NCBI GenBank assembly: GCA_026708565.1
Contig: JAPOUR010000032.1
Location: forward strand, 9,081 to 73,080
Direction: 5' to 3'
Length of the DNA: 64,000 nt
From: Candidatus Dadabacteria bacterium
Lineage (GTDB): Bacteria > Desulfobacterota_D > UBA1144 > Nemesobacterales > Mycalebacteriaceae
The notes beneath the pieces were generated by a model. The model ran no database searches. It was not told the origin of the DNA and worked only from the letters and a program-made list of their open reading frames with translations. This document shows, piece after piece, positions 9,947 to 17,512 of the stretch. Positions within the stretch are counted from its first letter, which is position 1. Each line of letters begins with the position of its first letter. A program made the position numbers and the translations under genes.

Positions 9947-11057
9947 TTTCCAGAACTGTTCCTAAAACTATGTCCGCGCACCTGTTGAATTCCTCAATAA
10001 CAAGATGCTCATTAACCGTGTGGAGTTCATACATGCCCGTTCCGAGATTGACGCACTCTATGCCCTTGCGGTTGAAGAAATTGGCGTCGCACCCGCCGCC
10101 GCTTGTGTGAAAAACCACCGGAAAACCCGTTTCGCGCGCGACACTCTCCACCATTTTTGCAATACGGGAGGATTCGGACACATCCATCAGCGGATAAATG
10201 GGCTCGCGCGTTATCTTCACATCCGGTTTGCCCCCGCGCGCCTTTGCCGATGCGGCGATAAAGCGCTCCTCCATGTGGTCCATCTGCTTTGCGAGTTTTT
10301 CCTCATTGTGGCTTCTTGCCTCGCACAAAAGGGACACGGAACCCGGAATTATGTTGATTGCCGTTCCGCCCGATATCTTCCCCACATTGGCGGTGGTCTC
10401 AAAGTCTATCCTTCCCAGTTTCATCCCTGATATGGCGTCCGCCGCAATTTCTATGGCGCTTACGCCGTCCTCCGGGCACAGGCCGGCGTGCGCCTCAACG
10501 CCCTTTATTTCCACATTCATCATGTCGGAGGCGGGGCATTTGACAACAAGCCGCTCCGGTGTGCTGCTGTCAAGAACTATTCCCTCGGCGGACTCAAACA
10601 GCGAAGGGTCAATATGCTTTGCCCCCAGTAGGCCGACCTCTTCGCATATTGTGAACGCTATCTCAATGTCGCCGTGGGGAAGGGCGTTCTCTTTGAGGGA
10701 GCGCGCGACCTCAACAATCACCGAGACGCCGCTTTTGTCATCGCTGCCCAAAATGGTGTCGCCGCCGCTTCTGAGAAAGCCGTCTTCCACGCGCGGGTTT
10801 ATGCCCCTGCCCGGCGCGACCGTGTCCATGTGGGCGGAAAGAAGAAGGGGAGGGGCGCTTGTGTTGCCCCTTATCTTCACAATCAGGTTTCCGGTGTCGC
10901 CGCCGACTTTTTCTCCGCAGTCATCGTAAGAGCAGTCCGCGCCGAGTTCCCGCATCTGCTTTTCCAGAACCAGCGCGACATCCCTCTCACAACGTGACTC
11001 GCTGTCTATCCGGATGATATCCGTCAGGTGCTCCAGCATTCTCGTGTATGAAATCAT
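9921..11057 (-). CDS. pepT: Peptidase T-like M20 family tripeptidase.
   Basis: Motifs HMDTV and GSDDKSGV. A GGAGG ribosome-binding site lies 7 nt upstream of the ATG of MISYTRMLEHL. The longer ORF-track N-terminus is rejected. Confidence 0.7.
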   Translation of the reverse strand: MISYTRMLEHLTDIIRIDSESRCERDVALVLEKQMRELGADCSYDDCGEKVGGDTGNLIVKIRGNTSAPPLLLSAHMDTVAPGRGINPRVEDGFLRSGGDTILGSDDKSGVSVIVEVARSLKENALPHGDIEIAFTICEEVGLLGAKHIDPSLFESAEGIVLDSSTPERLVVKCPASDMMNVEIKGVEAHAGLCPEDGVSAIEIAADAISGMKLGRIDFETTANVGKISGGTAINIIPGSVSLLCEARSHNEEKLAKQMDHMEERFIAASAKARGGKPDVKITREPIYPLMDVSESSRIAKMVESVARETGFPVVFHTSGGGCDANFFNRKGIECVNLGTGMYELHTVNEHLVIEEFNRCADIVLGTVLENVGAKQAN

Positions 11058-12351
11058 GTTCAATCCTCCCCGAATCGCGCCGGGAAGTATGCTGTCCGCC
11101 AAGCATAAAATCAACACGGCCTGTGAGCGCCTCAAGGTTGTCGCGCATTTTTGCGGACACAAAAACCGCGCCGCGGTATATCAAAGAAAGGTCTTTTATT
11201 CTGCCGGGCGGGGCCGTGTCGGTCTTGTTGAAAGCAAGCAGCCGGGGAATGTCGCCAAACCCCATAAGGCCGATAACATTTTCAACCGCCGTTATTTTGT
11301 CTTCCACAACCGGGTCGCCCGCGTCCGCCACATGAACAAGCAGGCCCGCGCCGCCAATCTCCTCAAGGGTCGCCCTGAAAGCCATTCTCAGGTCGTCCGG
11401 CAGGTCTTTGATAAAACCCACCGTGTCTGTGAGGAGAACAGGGGAGCGCGCCGGGCGGTAAAGGCGGCGGGTCTTTGTGGCGAGGGTGGTGAACATTTTG
11501 TCCGCCGCATCGGCGGGGGCTTTGGTCAGGGCGGCAAACAGGGTGGATTTTCCCGCATTTGTATAGCCCACAAGGGAAACCGCCCGCGAGTTGCCGTCTT
11601 TTATGCGGCGGGTCTTTGTGCGCTCCCTTCTCGCCGATATGCCCTCCATTTGCCGCTCAAGGTCTTTTATCCGCTTCCGCAGGCCCCTTCTCTCTTTTTC
11701 CAAGCGTTTCTCTCCGGGGCCCCTTGTTCCTATACCGGCTCCGGGGTTTGACATCAGCGCCCCGCTTCCCGCAAGGCGGGGAAGGGCGTATTTCAATTCG
11801 GCGAGTTTGACCTGAAGCCTTCCCTCTTTTGAGGACGCCCGGGATGAGAAAATTTCAAGAATCAGTTGCGTCCTGTCAATAATTTTCATGTCAGTGCGGC
11901 TTTGTATCTCGGAAATTTCCGCCGGTTTCAATTCGGTGTCAAAAATTACCGCCCCCGCCCCCTCATGCCTTGCAAGCAGAAGAAGGTCGGAGAGGTTCGC
12001 CTCTCCCAAAACGGTGTTGCCCGTCCTTTTGGAGGGACGGAGCATATGGATGCGCCGCCCGGCAACCTGTTTTCCCGCAGACACCGCAAGCCGCTCAAGT
12101 TCCTCAAGCGAGGCCGCCGCCCCGGCCTGCGTCCCGCGCGAGGCTCCCGCAAGAAAAACACAATCCCGGCCTCGCGGGGCGGCGGGGCGCGCCGCCTCCG
12201 GAACGGCAAGGGCGGTCTGCGAATCAACCCTCACGGCTCTGTAATCCGGAAAGCGGACGGTTTCACATCTGTCCGGGCCGGGAGAGGGGCGGGCAAACTC
12301 AAAACCCGCATGGCCCCGGGGGCCGCCCGGCATTGTTATGACGCCCACCAT
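10987..12351 (-). CDS. hflX: GTPase HflX.
   Basis: HflX N-domain (QVKLAELKYALPRL) and the G-domain motifs GYTNAGKST and DTVGFI. The start is uncertain; the ORF is open back to 12609. The 3' end overlaps the pepT start by 71 bp. Confidence 0.7.
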   Translation of the reverse strand: MVGVITMPGGPRGHAGFEFARPSPGPDRCETVRFPDYRAVRVDSQTALAVPEAARPAAPRGRDCVFLAGASRGTQAGAAASLEELERLAVSAGKQVAGRRIHMLRPSKRTGNTVLGEANLSDLLLLARHEGAGAVIFDTELKPAEISEIQSRTDMKIIDRTQLILEIFSSRASSKEGRLQVKLAELKYALPRLAGSGALMSNPGAGIGTRGPGEKRLEKERRGLRKRIKDLERQMEGISARRERTKTRRIKDGNSRAVSLVGYTNAGKSTLFAALTKAPADAADKMFTTLATKTRRLYRPARSPVLLTDTVGFIKDLPDDLRMAFRATLEEIGGAGLLVHVADAGDPVVEDKITAVENVIGLMGFGDIPRLLAFNKTDTAPPGRIKDLSLIYRGAVFVSAKMRDNLEALTGRVDFMLGGQHTSRRDSGRIEHDFIHENAGAPDGYHPDRQRVTL

Positions 12352-12733
12352 TTCAAGCCGCTCGTTGATAAGGGTGAACCTGTCATTTTCCGTAAGCCCC
12401 CGCCCGTCGGCGCGGGCGCGGATGAGCCTGTAGTTCCTCACCGCCTTTGCCGTGTCGCGGCGTTTTTTGAAAAAGGCGGATATTTCCGCATCGCAACCGT
12501 CTCCGAGAAACACGGCGCAGACCCCGCCTTTCCCGTTGACAAGGGCGGAGACGGGCCTCTTTGCGGCGGAAACCGCCGAGCACAGGGACGCGCCGAACTC
12601 CGGCGTCATAACCCGCCCGGGATTCAGATTTTTATCATACAGTTTGAGAACCAGCCTGACTTCTCTGCTGGTAAGCCCGGACTTCCTTCCGTAAACGGAA
12701 ACAGTCGCTATTGAACTTCTCCTATGATGTTCA

Positions 12734-12838
12734 TCATGGGTTCAAAAAAACATGCGTAAGCGCGGCGATAAACAGTATTGAGCCGACCAGAACAAAAATG
12801 CCCGCTATGTAAATCTCTGCGCCCGTCCGGTTTTTCAT
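12734..12838 (-). CDS. Putative leaderless small hydrophobic peptide of 34 aa (MKNRTGAEIYIAGIFVLVGSILFIAALTHVFLNP), ending in tandem TGA TGA stops.
   Basis: The ATG lies 6 nt downstream of a perfect TATAAT -10 element. The ORF is not in the track because it is shorter than 60 aa. Confidence 0.35.
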   Translation of the reverse strand: MKNRTGAEIYIAGIFVLVGSILFIAALTHVFLNP

Positions 12839-12844
12839 ACCGCT

Positions 12845-12872
12845 ATTATAATGCCGCGCGGGGAGTTGTCAA
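12845..12872 (-). promoter_or_regulatory. Near-consensus sigma-70 promoter on the minus strand: TTGACA, 16-bp spacer, TATAAT.
   Basis: Read directly. The -35 element is at 12867-12872 and the -10 element at 12845-12850, given as the reverse complement. It is the only transcription signal upstream of the small ORF and hflX. Confidence 0.6.
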
Positions 12873-12938
12873 AAGCGGGGCTCGCCGTTAGACTGACTTT
12901 CAACAACGGGCGGCAAAGCCCGCATAAAGGAGAAGACA

Positions 12939-13874
12939 ATGGCGCGTGTTGCAACTATTTCACCGGTGTGGGGATGCGGAGTTGAGGATTTGAGGGCTCT
13001 CGCCCGCGAGGCGGAGGGGGCGGGGTTTGAAGCGATTTTCTCGCCCGAAGTGCCGCCTTACAGCGCCATCTCAAACGCTCAGGTGTTTGCCGAAGCCACA
13101 TCCTCAATCAAGGTCGGCACATGGATCACAAATATCTTTATGCGCAAGCCGGTTATTTGCGCCGCCGAGGCTCTGACCGTTCAGGAGGTTTCCGGCGGCA
13201 GGATGATATTGGGGCTGGGAGTGAGCCACAAGCCGGTCAACGACAAATTCGGCATAGACATGGGAAATCCAGTTGAGTCAATGGAGGACTACATAGCGCA
13301 GATAAGGCCCATACTTGACGGCTCCTCGGAACTGCTGACAATCAAGCGCGAACTGCCCCGCATTCCCGTCCACATAGCGGGGCTTACAAACTCTGCGGCG
13401 CAGTTGGCGGGAAGGGCGGCGGACGGGCTGATGCCCTACATGTCTCCGCCGGAATATGTCAGGCAATTGAAGGAGCGGGTTGCGGAGGGCGCAAAGGAGG
13501 CGGGGAGAGACCCGTCTGCGGTTGAAATTACAAACGGCATTCCGTCTTTCATTTCAGACAGTTTTGATGACGCCGTAAAGGCGGCGAAATTCGGGCTTTC
13601 CGGCTACGCGCGGTTTCCCTTTTATCAGCGTCTCATCACCAACATCGGCCACGGCGAAGTGGTTGAAAAAATCAAAGGGGGAGAAAAACCGCACGAGGCG
13701 TTTACCGATGAACTGATTGACGCGGTGGCGCTTGTGGGCTCCGCAGAGCGCTGCCGCGAGCGGCTTGAAGCCCACAGGGAGGCGGGCGTCAGCCTGCCCA
13801 TCATAGTTCCCGGGGCGGTGGGCAAGCAGAGCAATGTGGAGGTGATGAAAGTTACCTGCGCGGCCTACGGTTAA
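12939..13874 (+). CDS. LLM-family flavin/F420-dependent oxidoreductase (luciferase-like monooxygenase fold).
   Basis: N-terminus MARVATISPVWGCGVEDLRALAREAEGAGFEAIFSPEV, and an AGGAGA ribosome-binding site. Confidence 0.65.
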   Translation: MARVATISPVWGCGVEDLRALAREAEGAGFEAIFSPEVPPYSAISNAQVFAEATSSIKVGTWITNIFMRKPVICAAEALTVQEVSGGRMILGLGVSHKPVNDKFGIDMGNPVESMEDYIAQIRPILDGSSELLTIKRELPRIPVHIAGLTNSAAQLAGRAADGLMPYMSPPEYVRQLKERVAEGAKEAGRDPSAVEITNGIPSFISDSFDDAVKAAKFGLSGYARFPFYQRLITNIGHGEVVEKIKGGEKPHEAFTDELIDAVALVGSAERCRERLEAHREAGVSLPIIVPGAVGKQSNVEVMKVTCAAYG

Positions 13875-15575
13875 TCAGACCGCGCCGCCGTGCAACCCGC
13901 GCAGTTCGCCGCGTTTTTTCTTTCCGTTTTTCGTGCGCGGTATCGCGCCGGTGATGAAAACCTCTTTGGGAATCTTGTAATGCGCAAGGCGGGCGGAGAG
14001 GAAATCCAATATCTCTTTTTTCAGAGTTTCCCCGTCATGCCCGCCGGGGGAGGGAACGACAAACGCCGCCGCGATAACCTTTCCTTCGCCCGCCTCAATC
14101 CCCGCCGCCGCGCAGTCCGCCACTTTCGGGTGCTTTGACAGCGCGGCCTCAATTTCAAAGGGTGAAATCCTGTAACCGAAACTGTTTATCATGTCGTCTT
14201 TTCTGCCAAGCGGCCACAGGTAGCCCTCATCGTCCGCCGTAAAATAGTCGCCGCTAATAAAATCCCCCTTGCGCGAAAACATTTCGCGCGTCTCAGCGGG
14301 GCGGTTCCAGTAGCCGAGCATAATTCCGGGGTCGCCGGGCGATGAGCACAAAACCCCTTCCCCGCCGCCGCGAACCGGCTCTCCGCTTTCGGGGTCGACA
14401 AGAAAACATTTTCGCCCCGGCTGCGGCATTCCCGGAGAGCCGGGCCTGATACCCATCCCCTCCATGTTTGATATGTAATAACTGAACTCGCTCATCCCCA
14501 GCCCTTCGCGTATGTCAACGCCGAAATTATCTTTCCAGACTGAAAAAAGTTCGGGGGTCAGATGCTCGCCCGCGCTGAGGCAATGGGTCAGCCCCGAAAC
14601 ATCGGGAGGCGGGCCGCTTGCCGCGTCTCTCGCCATCTGCCGGAAAACCGTCGGCACGGCCATAAACACATCAACGCGGTGTTTTTTTATCAGGTCAAAC
14701 ATAATGCGCGGATTGTATGCCCCGCCGTAAAGCACCGATGAGCATCCGTGCCGCCATGCGTCAAGGCATCCGGCTCCGAGGGTGTATGTCCAGTTGAGTT
14801 TCCCCGCGTGAAAAACCCGTGGGCGGGAGCGCGCCCCAAGCCAGAACACCGCCGCCGGGTCGCGCCCTATGGCCGCCCTGTGCGCGTGTGCAACCCCCTT
14901 GGGCTCGCCGGTTGTTCCCGATGTGTAGCACAGATAAGCGATGTCTTCGGCGGAAGTGTTTGCGGGCGTGAGTTCGGCGGGGGCATTTTCCGTCAGATTG
15001 TCAATATCCGCGCAACCGGCGGGCGCTTTCCCGCCGGTCGTCCAAACCGCGCTCAAACCGGCCGCCGCCTCCCCGACCCGCCCGTAAATTTCCGGAGAGG
15101 TTACAAGCGCCTTCGCGCCGCTGTCCGCAAGTATGTGGGAAACCTCATGACGGGTAAGCATTGCGCTCGCCGGAATTGGAATCGCGCCGATTTTCATCGC
15201 CGCAAGAAATGAAAACGGAAATTCCGGAACGTTGTCCAACATAACCATCACCCTGTCGCCGCGTTTAACGCCGGAGGCGAGAAATATGTTTGCGATTTTA
15301 TTTGTCTCCGTTTTCAGGTCTGAAAAACTGAACCGTTTCACCTCCCCGTCCCCGCCCTCCCATATAAGGGCGGTTCTGTTTGCAAGGTCGGGATTTGAGG
15401 CGTTCCTGTCCGCGCAGTCAACGCCCGCGTTAAACTTGCGGGGAATGTTCCACTTCCACGAGGCGCAGAGGGCTTTGTAGTCAAAAGGCATGGGTGTAAT
15501 TATTATGAATTGGTCGGGAGTTTCAAAGGGAGGGGGGAACATGAAGGTTATTAAATGCCGCCGTTTTGAGTCCAC
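13875..15575 (-). CDS. AMP-dependent synthetase/ligase, an acyl-CoA synthetase related to acetoacetyl- or acetyl-CoA synthetases.
   Basis: AMP-binding motif YTSGTTGEPKGV. The start is uncertain: a GTG at 15575 or an ATG at 15491. Confidence 0.75.
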   Translation of the reverse strand: MDSKRRHLITFMFPPPFETPDQFIIITPMPFDYKALCASWKWNIPRKFNAGVDCADRNASNPDLANRTALIWEGGDGEVKRFSFSDLKTETNKIANIFLASGVKRGDRVMVMLDNVPEFPFSFLAAMKIGAIPIPASAMLTRHEVSHILADSGAKALVTSPEIYGRVGEAAAGLSAVWTTGGKAPAGCADIDNLTENAPAELTPANTSAEDIAYLCYTSGTTGEPKGVAHAHRAAIGRDPAAVFWLGARSRPRVFHAGKLNWTYTLGAGCLDAWRHGCSSVLYGGAYNPRIMFDLIKKHRVDVFMAVPTVFRQMARDAASGPPPDVSGLTHCLSAGEHLTPELFSVWKDNFGVDIREGLGMSEFSYYISNMEGMGIRPGSPGMPQPGRKCFLVDPESGEPVRGGGEGVLCSSPGDPGIMLGYWNRPAETREMFSRKGDFISGDYFTADDEGYLWPLGRKDDMINSFGYRISPFEIEAALSKHPKVADCAAAGIEAGEGKVIAAAFVVPSPGGHDGETLKKEILDFLSARLAHYKIPKEVFITGAIPRTKNGKKKRGELRGLHGGAV

Positions 15576-15694: not shown

Positions 15695-17512
15695 ATGAAT
15701 CCACTTTACACCAGCGTTAGGCGCGAGACGAAGAGAGCCCTGACCGTCCTTGGGGCGATTCTCTGTTTATTAATTCCGGCGGATTTTGCCAAAGCAGATT
15801 ACAGCGGAAACGGGGCAGAAAACGGGGCAACCGACATGGGCGGAGGCCACCCTTCCACCCCCGGCCCGGACACTACTAATGCGGCGGTGTGGCTCAATTC
15901 ATCCGCTTTCGGCGCGTTTGCACGCACGCAGGGACACGATTCAACTGCCATCGGCGCAAGCACAATTGTTACAGGAAATTCTTCAACAGCCATTGGTTTT
16001 TCGGCGGGGGCCAGAGGGAACAATGCAACGGCTGTCGGCGCGAGGGCTTTTGCGAAAGAAAATTCAACGGCTGTCGGCCAGTTTGCGAGGGCGGACGGAC
16101 TAAATTCAACGGCTGTCGGTCATAGCGCGTGCGCGGTTGAATATAGCGCAACGGCCCTCGGACGCGACGCATTTGCAAGACAGGAAGCAACAGCTCTCGG
16201 CGCGTTTGCGAGGGCGGATGATTATTCAATAGCGTTAGGCGCAAGGGCTTTTGCAAACGGCAGGGGTGGCGCCGTTGCCATTGGGACGGGCTCAAACGCG
16301 ACCGGCACGGACGCAATAGCAATCGGGCGCAATGTGCTCGCCACCGGCGGACAAATCCGCATCGGCAACTCCTCAGTAAGGAATGTGCGGATAGGCGCTT
16401 ACGACTTGAGTGAACTTTCAGGCATTACCGGAGACGGCATAAGCGCCGATGCCGTTGGAGATATAATTACCAATGCGGCAACGGAAGGCGGAACGATTGA
16501 CAGGGCAATTGACAGGGCGTTAAGAGTTGAAACCGAGTCCCGCGCCAATGCCGACAATGCTCTGCGCGCCGACCTCGGCACACAAACCGATATGCGCAAT
16601 TCCAACGGTAGCGCACACGCGCGCATCAATTACATACAAGACGTAATCGGCTCGGCAAACAGCGCTGAACTTATGGCGTGGCGTGTGAATGAAGCCGTTT
16701 CAGCCGTGGATCCGGTTATGCCGGATGAAGAGGGGCAACTCAGTATAAAAATTAACGCTGAAACCGGTGAGATTATCTTGACGGGAGACAGCGTGCGCGC
16801 TCAGGTGGCATCGCTGGTGGCGGCTTTATCCCGCTCCAACAGTCCTCTGGTGGATGCCGAGGGCAATCCGGTCAACACCAGCTTGGGAGAGTTCAATGAA
16901 CTGGACCCCGGCCAAGTGAGCGGCAACCAACGGCTGACATACCTGTTCCGGGCCTTATACGGCGACCCCTCGGTTGCCAGCCCCGGCGATAATGACATTG
17001 ACTCCAACACCCCGCACGCCGACAGCATAGTAGGGCGCATACAACAGGGAGTGTTGCGTAGCGAGGCGGATGTTGCGGCTGACCGTGACACCAATGGCGG
17101 ATTGGCGGGGAACGGCGGTTATCGTGCGGCGCCGACAATCGGCTCAGGCCGCATGGATGCGCCAAACACTGAGGCTGACCGCCAGTTAGTTGTGCAGGAT
17201 ACAAATGTTGACGGCACGGTGCGTCTGAGCACTTTGCCTTTCAGCACCCTGTCCGGCTTAGACCGGCGCGTGGAAGGGTTGGAAAAAGACCTTTCCGCCG
17301 GCATTGCCATGTCAATGGCAATGCAGTCGTCTCTCTTGCCGGGCGAGAGAATGAGCGTGTCTCTCGGTTCCGCAACCTATAATAAAGAATACGCTGCGGC
17401 TTTATCTTTAGGATTACGCATCAACAAGAGGTGGCGGTTCAATACCGGCGTGGGCTGGGGAAGTAGCGGAACCAAACTGGGCGGTCGCTTCGGCGCAACC
17501 TACGGATGGTGA
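15695..17512 (+). CDS. Small trimeric autotransporter adhesin with a signal peptide, a Hep_Hag head, a coiled-coil stalk and a canonical YadA anchor ending ...GRFGATYGW.
   Basis: Signal peptide MNPLYTSV...LLIPADFAKA, head repeats NSTAVG/DSTAIG, and the motif IRIGNSSVRNVRIGAYDL before the stalk. Confidence 0.8.
   Translation: MNPLYTSVRRETKRALTVLGAILCLLIPADFAKADYSGNGAENGATDMGGGHPSTPGPDTTNAAVWLNSSAFGAFARTQGHDSTAIGASTIVTGNSSTAIGFSAGARGNNATAVGARAFAKENSTAVGQFARADGLNSTAVGHSACAVEYSATALGRDAFARQEATALGAFARADDYSIALGARAFANGRGGAVAIGTGSNATGTDAIAIGRNVLATGGQIRIGNSSVRNVRIGAYDLSELSGITGDGISADAVGDIITNAATEGGTIDRAIDRALRVETESRANADNALRADLGTQTDMRNSNGSAHARINYIQDVIGSANSAELMAWRVNEAVSAVDPVMPDEEGQLSIKINAETGEIILTGDSVRAQVASLVAALSRSNSPLVDAEGNPVNTSLGEFNELDPGQVSGNQRLTYLFRALYGDPSVASPGDNDIDSNTPHADSIVGRIQQGVLRSEADVAADRDTNGGLAGNGGYRAAPTIGSGRMDAPNTEADRQLVVQDTNVDGTVRLSTLPFSTLSGLDRRVEGLEKDLSAGIAMSMAMQSSLLPGERMSVSLGSATYNKEYAAALSLGLRINKRWRFNTGVGWGSSGTKLGGRFGATYGW

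Follow-up and report, generated by a model that had tools for sequence, protein, structure and literature searches.

How does translation of hflX begin in Candidatus Dadabacteria? The question is raised by a locus on the minus strand of a 64-kb stretch of Candidatus Dadabacteria DNA (the window, in whose coordinates positions are given), where a perfect consensus promoter stands 6 nucleotides (nt) before the ATG of a short upstream open reading frame (uORF1), which encodes a hydrophobic peptide of 34 amino acids (aa) and is followed by the gene for the GTPase HflX. A first-pass annotation of the sequence had flagged the promoter and the peptide. The more interesting content is found just outside the flagged coordinates and consists of the start codon of hflX, an ATA, and a putative two-step relay of ribosomes that would lead from uORF1 through a second mini-ORF (uORF2) to this codon. 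We consider it reasonably probable that the region is a conserved 5' control region of the Dadabacteria hflX operon and acts as such a relay, with a leaderless beginning, reinitiation and a final start at AUA.

The comparison set consists of the DNA upstream of hflX in ten further lineages (L004, L005 and L007 to L014), whose HflX proteins are 57-80% identical. Together with the window these make up 11 lineages; counts for the promoter region refer to the 10 lineages whose sequence reaches there. Two loci with HflX proteins of approximately 40% identity (L015 and L016) serve as outgroups. The annotated HflX of the window (P0001) is 100% identical to the NCBI entry GTPase HflX of Candidatus Dadabacteria bacterium, and Candidatus Mycalebacterium zealandia is among the close relatives as judged by HflX. 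Scans of metagenomes of the Joint Genome Institute (JGI) with peptide patterns returned nothing at first and later only one duplicate of L010.

On the minus strand, the promoter consists of TTGACA, a 16-nt spacer (ACTCCCCGCGCGGCAT) and TATAAT; the hexanucleotide AGCGGT then leads to the ATG of uORF1 at 12838-12836. The sequence matches the sigma-70-type consensus (TTGACA and TATAAT, 16-18 nt apart) in 12 of 12 positions and is the sole exact TTGACA-N16-18-TATAAT in the window, where the runner-up site scores 11/12 and all others score 10/12 or less. The mean number of exact matches expected from dinucleotide shuffles is 0.01, one of 100 shuffles having produced a single match. The perfect promoter described in the first-pass annotation is thereby confirmed, while the genome-wide figure of about 60% GC given with it does not agree with the 54.7% G+C of the window. 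Among the relatives, TTTGACA is invariant (10/10 lineages covering the -35 region) and TTATAAT is kept in 9 of 10 lineages, the exception being L013 with TATACT. The spacer is 16-18 nt long across lineages, and its sequence and the flanks diverge while the hexamers stay. As judged from this pattern, the element is a consensus sigma-70 promoter under strong purifying selection.

The distance between the -10 hexamer and the ATG of the peptide is short throughout (6, 7, 10, 10, 7, 8, 7, 10, 8 and 8 nt in the 10 lineages) and contains no Shine-Dalgarno sequence in any of them. In single-sequence folds the first nucleotides at the 5' end are unpaired. We infer that transcription starts from A 12838 or no more than a few nt away, and the geometry, which is held across the clade, is that of a leaderless or near-leaderless mRNA. 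The leaderless transcript proposed in the first-pass annotation is a prediction that this geometry supports: hexamers and a distance of 6-10 nt free of Shine-Dalgarno sequences are kept across the clade. A crude scan of the window finds a leaderless-like -10 geometry at only 1 of 49 long ORFs, and hence the arrangement is not typical of the genes in this part of the genome. We note that contig L014 (logan SRR29844789_390741, 1-100) has its first base at nt 6 of uORF1 and so starts 5 nt past the position predicted for the start of transcription; this contig edge would constitute direct evidence for the 5' end if run SRR29844789 is RNA-derived.

uORF1 encodes MKNRTGAEIYIAGIFVLVGSILFIAALTHVFLNP, followed in the window by TGA TGA. 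A peptide of 33-35 aa is present in 11/11 lineages (mean column identity 84%), and the ten relatives share 74-88% of its residues. Conservation of the ORF at the amino-acid level, on which the first-pass annotation had made its reading depend, is therefore found. In the 30-codon core (pooled), the proportions of synonymous (pS) and nonsynonymous (pN) differences are 0.635 and 0.099, respectively, corresponding to pN/pS = 0.16; for codons 2-34 of hflX the values are pS = 0.509, pN = 0.208 and pN/pS = 0.41. The median pairwise ratio of nonsynonymous to synonymous substitution rates (dN/dS) of uORF1 is 0.09, with synonymous sites near saturation, and invariant residues such as T5, G6, G13, A25, L27, T28, L32 and P34 are each specified by 3-5 synonymous codons. 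Purifying selection on amino acids, together with a conserved length and frame, is what is expected of a small coding ORF. Because the conservation is at the amino-acid level and synonymous change is free, uORF1 is, on this comparison, a real and essentially unannotated gene. Gene callers skipped it in 10 of the 11 lineages and the exact peptide of the window is not on record, as would be the case if only the promoter were functional and the 34 codons merely a chance ORF within an untranslated leader. Such an origin is hardly credible: it is contradicted by the pattern of codon substitution, that is, by the low pN/pS and the near-saturated synonymous change, and length and stop position are kept while no conserved RNA structure is found.

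Pfam, NCBIfam and PDB contain no meaningful match for the peptide, and a homologue search with a concatenate of three variants returned nothing at E<=1. A phmmer search against 1.84 billion cluster representatives yields one match, P0121, which is the 34-aa call at 1772..1876 on L008, a TARA contig. uORF1 is a single-copy gene, and every recovered copy (11 lineages and one peptide-only metagenome scan) is located upstream of hflX. It is absent at the outgroup loci L015 and L016, which confines the device to the Dadabacteria sampled and places its origin at their base or within them. As a further observation on its codons, Ile11 (12806-12808, minus strand) is under a synonymous constraint: its codon is ATA in 11/11 lineages, with a purine as the next base each time (ATAG or ATAA), whereas ATT, ATC and ATA are interchanged freely at the four remaining Ile positions of uORF1.

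The peptide consists of a positively charged N-terminus (MKNRTG) and a hydrophobic helix comprising approximately residues 9-32 (Kyte-Doolittle maximum of 2.65 in a 19-residue window). Small residues lie on one face of the helix (G13, G/A19-S20, A25-S/A26), and invariant polar residues (E8, Y10, T28, H29) are found at its ends. These features suggest that the peptide probably functions as a single-pass membrane micro-protein and shares its message with HflX. A small hydrophobic peptide with a single helix behind a strong promoter also resembles a type-I toxin, as the first-pass annotation had pointed out. This identification was not borne out and is highly improbable. The peptide matches no known toxin or other family in the three databases named above, and neither an antisense promoter nor an Rfam small RNA (sRNA) lies over the ORF (the only plus-strand promoter-like site points away, although a novel sRNA is possible). 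Toxins are usually patchy and multicopy in distribution, whereas uORF1 is single-copy, always stands in strict synteny before a housekeeping gene to which it appears to be translationally chained, and is retained even in a streamlined genome.

The start of hflX itself requires revision. All public calls for Dadabacteria HflX (P0001-P0012) begin at the internal ATG 12609 or, in the case of P0009, at another internal ATG. The 102 nt before ATG 12609 are conserved in the hflX frame, with changes at third positions (...VYGRKSGLTSREVRLVLKLYDKNLNPGRV-MTPEF), and the in-frame conservation reaches exactly to an ATAG that is invariant in 11/11 lineages. Between the upstream stop and 12609, the hflX frame is devoid of ATG, GTG and TTG codons. 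A Shine-Dalgarno core (GGAG, GAGG or GGGG) is located 7-9 nt before the ATA in 11/11 lineages. If the extended HflX is used as a query, all twelve Dadabacteria clusters cover only 93-96% of it, because the N-terminal stretch is missing from the calls; most outgroup HflX proteins of 40% identity cover 96-100%, with a few truncated calls at 85-88%. The unannotated stretch can be aligned to the N-termini of outgroup proteins (MHISKIYGKTSGLT..., MQEVFGNTLGLKPSQ...), the ATA aligns exactly with Met1 of the outgroup HflX P0013, and the residues G8, G12, L13 and Y25, invariant also when distant HflX proteins are included, fall within the 34 missing residues. The AlphaFold2 model of the extended HflX has a predicted local distance difference test score (pLDDT) of 86-91 at residues 11-40, with a strand at residues 6-8 and a helix at residues 15-26.

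From the lack of a canonical in-frame start, the in-frame conservation up to ATAG, the alignment with Met1 of P0013 and the predicted fold, we conclude that translation of hflX begins, in this clade, at an ATA that is conserved although non-canonical, and that all public calls lack 34 residues. The proposed true N-terminus thus coincides with a conserved start codon other than AUG, GUG or UUG. The codon is one transition away from ATG yet has never changed, which argues for selection on the codon itself, with the caveat that all lineages belong to a single clade. ATG 12609 was considered as the real start and rejected: it has no conserved Shine-Dalgarno sequence, and the 34 codons upstream of it are conserved, homologous to outgroup sequence and confidently folded.

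Two further observations concern the start of hflX in the outgroups. At L015 (1964-2003), where no uORF1 is present, hflX has a GTG start with TATAAT 8 nt before it and TGGTATAAT further upstream. An AGGAG abuts the GTG too closely for a role as Shine-Dalgarno sequence, and hflX itself may be leaderless in this outgroup. At L016 (2001-2075), the annotated TTG of hflX lies 24 codons upstream of the position that aligns with Met1 of other HflX proteins. The sequence at the aligned position reads GGAAGGAAACC-ATAG, and an ATA start may therefore also be used outside the clade that carries uORF1.

The stop of uORF1 and the ATA are 22 nt apart in 10 lineages; in L004 the distance is 21 nt. The interval is bridged by uORF2, an ORF of 7-9 codons that spans the Shine-Dalgarno sequence of hflX and whose TAG stop is contained in the invariant ATAG. 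Counted from the base that opens the uORF1 stop, an ATG or TTG in frame with this TAG is found at -1 to +4 nt in 11/11 lineages. The junction takes the form TGATG, in which the ATG shares the A of the TGA stop, or TTGA (in L013 and, additionally, in several others), or TGA-T-ATG (in L004). For L008 and L011 the scan listed in-frame TTGs far upstream; the ATG within TGATG was identified there by inspecting the sequence. In L004 the spacer that is shorter by 1 nt is matched by a shifted ATG of uORF2, such that the frame to the TAG is preserved. The peptides encoded by uORF2 show no conservation (examples are MMNIIGEVQ, MRKRKSQ and MSERGKNQ), as one would expect if only the position of the element matters. 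The stop/start overlaps typical of translational coupling, namely UGAUG, UUGA or UGA-U-AUG followed by AUAG, are hence present in 11/11 lineages.

In the window the junction reads cATGATGa, and the ATG of uORF2 overlaps the stop of uORF1. The tandem TGA TGA noted in the first-pass annotation is indeed present there, but it represents the uORF2 start (ATG ATG A...) read in another frame, and what the relatives conserve is not a double stop but a start overlapping a single stop (TGATG or TTGA). The suggestion that promoter and ORF belong to an hflX with an ambiguous start can likewise be sharpened: the start is the invariant ATA, 22 nt past the peptide stop in the window, with the second mini-ORF linking the two.

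A conserved RNA structure, riboswitch or attenuator was looked for in the region and rejected. An Rfam scan of 12300-13100 at E<=10 returned sub-threshold noise only, and no terminator is found in 12610-12840, between uORF1 and hflX. Single-sequence folds differ between lineages, and RNAalifold assigns weak consensus energies of -1.9 and -4.5 kcal/mol to the junction and to the 175-nt leader, respectively, in both cases without support from covariation. These results bear on the possibility that uORF1 is a sensor leader, whose nascent peptide stalls the ribosome, for instance at Pro-UGA in the manner of TnaC or when a ribosome-targeting drug is present in the manner of hflXr and erm leaders, and thereby modulates hflX. 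The peptide always ends in (N/K)-Pro-TGA, or (N/K)-Pro-TGA-T in nucleotide context, and is in this respect TnaC-like. Termination slows down when Pro is the last residue before the stop codon. The sequence of the peptide is more conserved than that of HflX, and there is a precedent in Firmicutes, where hflX paralogues stand under a translated leader ORF (PMC6310831; uORFC-6-1 motif, PMC8632094). Nevertheless we regard an arrest leader as improbable. The peptide has no Arg-Leu-Arg (RLR) motif, terminators or alternative hairpins were not found, and a ribosome held at the UGA would be approximately 13 nt from the Shine-Dalgarno sequence with no RNA switch to operate. Conservation extends over all 34 residues and is not focused on a C-terminal arrest motif. 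Because selection acts over the whole length and the pattern is that of a transmembrane helix with a face of small residues, a membrane micro-protein is favoured over a pure arrest peptide.

We also considered whether read-through or a +1 frameshift might join the peptide to HflX and thereby tether HflX to the membrane. Such a fusion is excluded because the two frames are related by +1 in ten lineages and by 0 in L004, and because in L005 and L007 stop codons interrupt the hflX frame on the way from the end of uORF1 to the ATA; a conserved slippery site is not present either. A frameshift from uORF2 into hflX was rejected as well, given that there is no conserved slippery heptamer and that the uORF2 peptide is not conserved.

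The arrangement that we favour is a relay, which would work as follows. RNA polymerase would start on the A of the uORF1 AUG or right beside it, and ribosomes would load on this 5'-terminal AUG, translate the 34-aa peptide and terminate at Pro-UGA. They would then reinitiate on the overlapping AUG of uORF2, cross the Shine-Dalgarno sequence of hflX, terminate at the UAG of uORF2 and, aided by the Shine-Dalgarno sequence, restart one nt back on an otherwise poor AUA. HflX synthesis would accordingly be set by termination and reinitiation instead of independent ribosome entry, and would be chained to the leaderless translation of uORF1. In this scheme uORF1 would not be a mere spacer: a functional membrane micro-protein would be produced along with HflX.

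Several points weigh against the relay. In this uncultured clade, the leaderless start and the reinitiation are predicted solely from geometry and conservation, and the membrane function of the peptide is deduced from composition alone. The three lineages in which the ATG lies 10 nt past the -10 hexamer likely have a leader of 2-4 nt. uORF2 is short, and its open frame could in part be a by-product of the stop context, the Shine-Dalgarno sequence and codon 2 of hflX; its support consists of one compensated indel and the start codons found in 11/11 lineages. The eleven lineages form one clade, and the counts are not independent events. Finally, AUA is about as efficient as AUG in vitro in an optimised context (PMC5499595), and an AUA with a good Shine-Dalgarno sequence may initiate de novo, in which case coupling would not be obligatory.

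A simpler view is that of an ordinary operon: a stand-alone small membrane protein is encoded first in the hflX operon, the overlaps are routine coupling, and the ATA keeps HflX at a low level. Selection on amino acids over the whole peptide and the absence of a regulatory RNA structure among those looked for are in line with this view, and stop/start overlaps are common in compact genomes (the chromosome of one relative measures 1.4 Mb). It leaves unexplained, however, why a predicted leaderless AUG, a bridging mini-ORF and an ATA that never changes in 11 lineages are stacked and all invariant, and why a promoter of perfect consensus is maintained. We therefore hold it to be rather unlikely, and return to the relay for its possible function.

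A more tentative proposal, which we regard as doubtful, is that HflX synthesis gauges the state of the ribosomes and that the relay constitutes a translational homeostat of ribosome recycling. The leaderless AUG, the reinitiation at uORF2 and the reinitiation at AUA would each favour intact or non-recycled ribosomes and would each be depressed by excess initiation factor 3 (IF3), as is the case in E. coli. Leaderless mRNAs associate chiefly with 70S ribosomes, and an excess of IF3 inhibits their translation (review PMC9031893); overexpression of IF3 markedly lowers re-initiation in E. coli (PMC2268962); non-canonical starts are disfavoured by IF3 discrimination (PMC9723500), and non-AUG starts are preferentially depressed by guanosine tetraphosphate (ppGpp) and nutrient limitation (PMC5499595). 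HflX in turn splits 70S ribosomes (summarised in PMC6310831). The succession of three IF3-sensitive and 70S-friendly steps before a 70S-splitting factor suggests a feedback gauge: HflX output would go up whenever 70S ribosomes that are vacant or poorly recycled build up in relation to IF3, and would go down after HflX has split them. Such a homeostat would consist of nothing but the geometry of reading frames and would yield a conserved membrane micro-protein as a co-product.

The coordinates of the features discussed are collected in the following table.

Table 1. Features of the hflX 5' region, in window coordinates
Feature	Position	Strand	Remarks
-35 hexamer TTGACA	12867..12872	-	motif match; kept across relatives
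-10 hexamer TATAAT, no TG extension	12845..12850	-	spacer 16 nt here, 16-18 nt in relatives
uORF1, 34-aa hydrophobic peptide, predicted leaderless, ending in Pro-TGA	12734..12838	-	present in 11/11 lineages
uORF2 (MMNIIGEVQ, then stop)	12708..12737	-	overlaps uORF1 stop and hflX ATA
Shine-Dalgarno sequence AGGAG of hflX, 7 nt 5' of ATA	12719..12723	-	core in 11/11 lineages
Proposed true hflX start, non-canonical ATA	12709..12711	-	ATAG invariant; alignment with outgroup Met1
hflX codons 2-34, unannotated (ATVSVYGRKSGLTSREVRLVLKLYDKNLNPGRV)	12610..12708	-	in-frame conservation; outgroup homology
hflX as publicly annotated, 540-aa GTPase HflX	10987..12609	-	P0001, 100% identical

The promoter is located in a divergent intergenic region of 329 nt between hflX (minus strand, annotated ATG 12609) and a gene encoding a luciferase-like oxidoreductase (plus strand, ATG 12939). 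On the plus strand, the reverse complement of the -35 hexamer region provides TTGTCA, which is followed after 17 nt by TAGACT (12866-12894, 9/12). This site could be a back-to-back divergent promoter of the oxidoreductase gene; its flanks are poorly conserved in the relatives. Downstream, the gene for an M20-family peptidase, as annotated on the identical contig L001, shares approximately 53 nt (10987-11039, minus strand) with the 3' end of hflX; cbiX comes next. The promoter at 12872 probably serves an operon of four or five cistrons, the gene order being kept in most relatives. At 15485-15526 (minus strand), TTGAAA, a 16-nt spacer, AATAAT and 7 nt precede an ATG (MPFDYKAL...) that sits within the 5' end of an acyl-CoA synthetase ORF (13875..15575). 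This is a possible second leaderless start, and the GTG or ATG starts called upstream may be wrong. Two genes upstream of the promoter region, the plus strand encodes a 605-aa protein (15695-17512) that combines a YadA anchor with head-like repeats, of the trimeric autotransporter adhesin type. Such a protein is unusual for a free-living, streamlined marine lineage.

With respect to annotation, the ATA start implies a correction for a universally conserved translation factor across a candidate phylum, for which 34 conserved residues are missing from the public record. A strongly conserved and essentially unannotated family of micro-proteins is added, represented by one gene call among approximately 15 billion public proteins. 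The locus also offers a portable natural test bed of approximately 170 nt, in which leaderless initiation, re-initiation and a non-AUG start would be arranged in series before a 70S-dissociating factor. Should the relay indeed respond to the balance of 70S ribosomes and IF3, it would represent a new autoregulation of ribosome recycling, distinct from the antibiotic-sensing hflXr attenuators.

Among known systems, infC, the gene for IF3, is autoregulated through its AUU start codon. Both cases concern a gene for a translation factor with a conserved non-canonical start one mutation away from AUG, whose synthesis is, or in the case of hflX would be, sensitive to the fidelity of initiation; here, however, the gene is hflX, the codon is AUA, and the context is that of reinitiation after uORFs. 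The closest counterpart by gene is the Listeria hflXr leader rli80 and the related uORFC-6-1 of Bacillales, which likewise consist of a translated short ORF directly upstream of an hflX-family gene and govern its expression through the behaviour of the ribosome (PMC6310831, PMC8632094). Those leaders encode a peptide of approximately 14 aa with an Arg-Leu-Arg motif, form covarying terminator and antiterminator hairpins and respond to macrolides and lincosamides (PMC6310831, PMC8632094). The Dadabacteria peptide, in contrast, is 33-35 aa long, hydrophobic and predicted to be leaderless, it has neither the R-L-R motif nor a conserved RNA structure, and its link to hflX consists of overlapping reading frames and the AUA start. 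A reading as an hflXr-type attenuator is thus not supported.

Leaderless short ORFs of mycobacteria (PMC4633059; bioRxiv 10.1101/834739) are similar in that the operon mRNA opens with the AUG of an unannotated short ORF, translation of which affects the genes that follow. The characterised mycobacterial cases act by attenuation and sense cysteine by poly-Cys codons, whereas here a transmembrane-like peptide is combined with a second mini-ORF and a non-canonical main start. Recognition of a 5'-terminal AUG by the ribosome upstream of a main gene led by a Shine-Dalgarno sequence is also described for E. coli (PMC4965119), but the ORFs in question are very short and not conserved as peptides. Classical translational coupling (M13 geneV-geneVII; PMC2268962, review PMC12548453) shares the UGAUG and UUGA overlaps at which a terminating ribosome restarts; the arrangement proposed here differs by its two steps, the bridging ORF of 7-9 codons, the AUAG overlap with a restart on AUA, and the leaderless beginning. 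Searches of the literature on hflX with leader peptides or attenuation, with leaderless mRNAs or 70S ribosomes and with uORFs, as well as on leaderless uORFs, coupling and small membrane proteins, did not bring up any account of this combination. While uORF-mediated and coupled translation are already known, what is new is the union on hflX of a conserved, predicted leaderless transmembrane peptide, a bridging mini-ORF and a putative restart at AUAG, together with the new peptide family itself.

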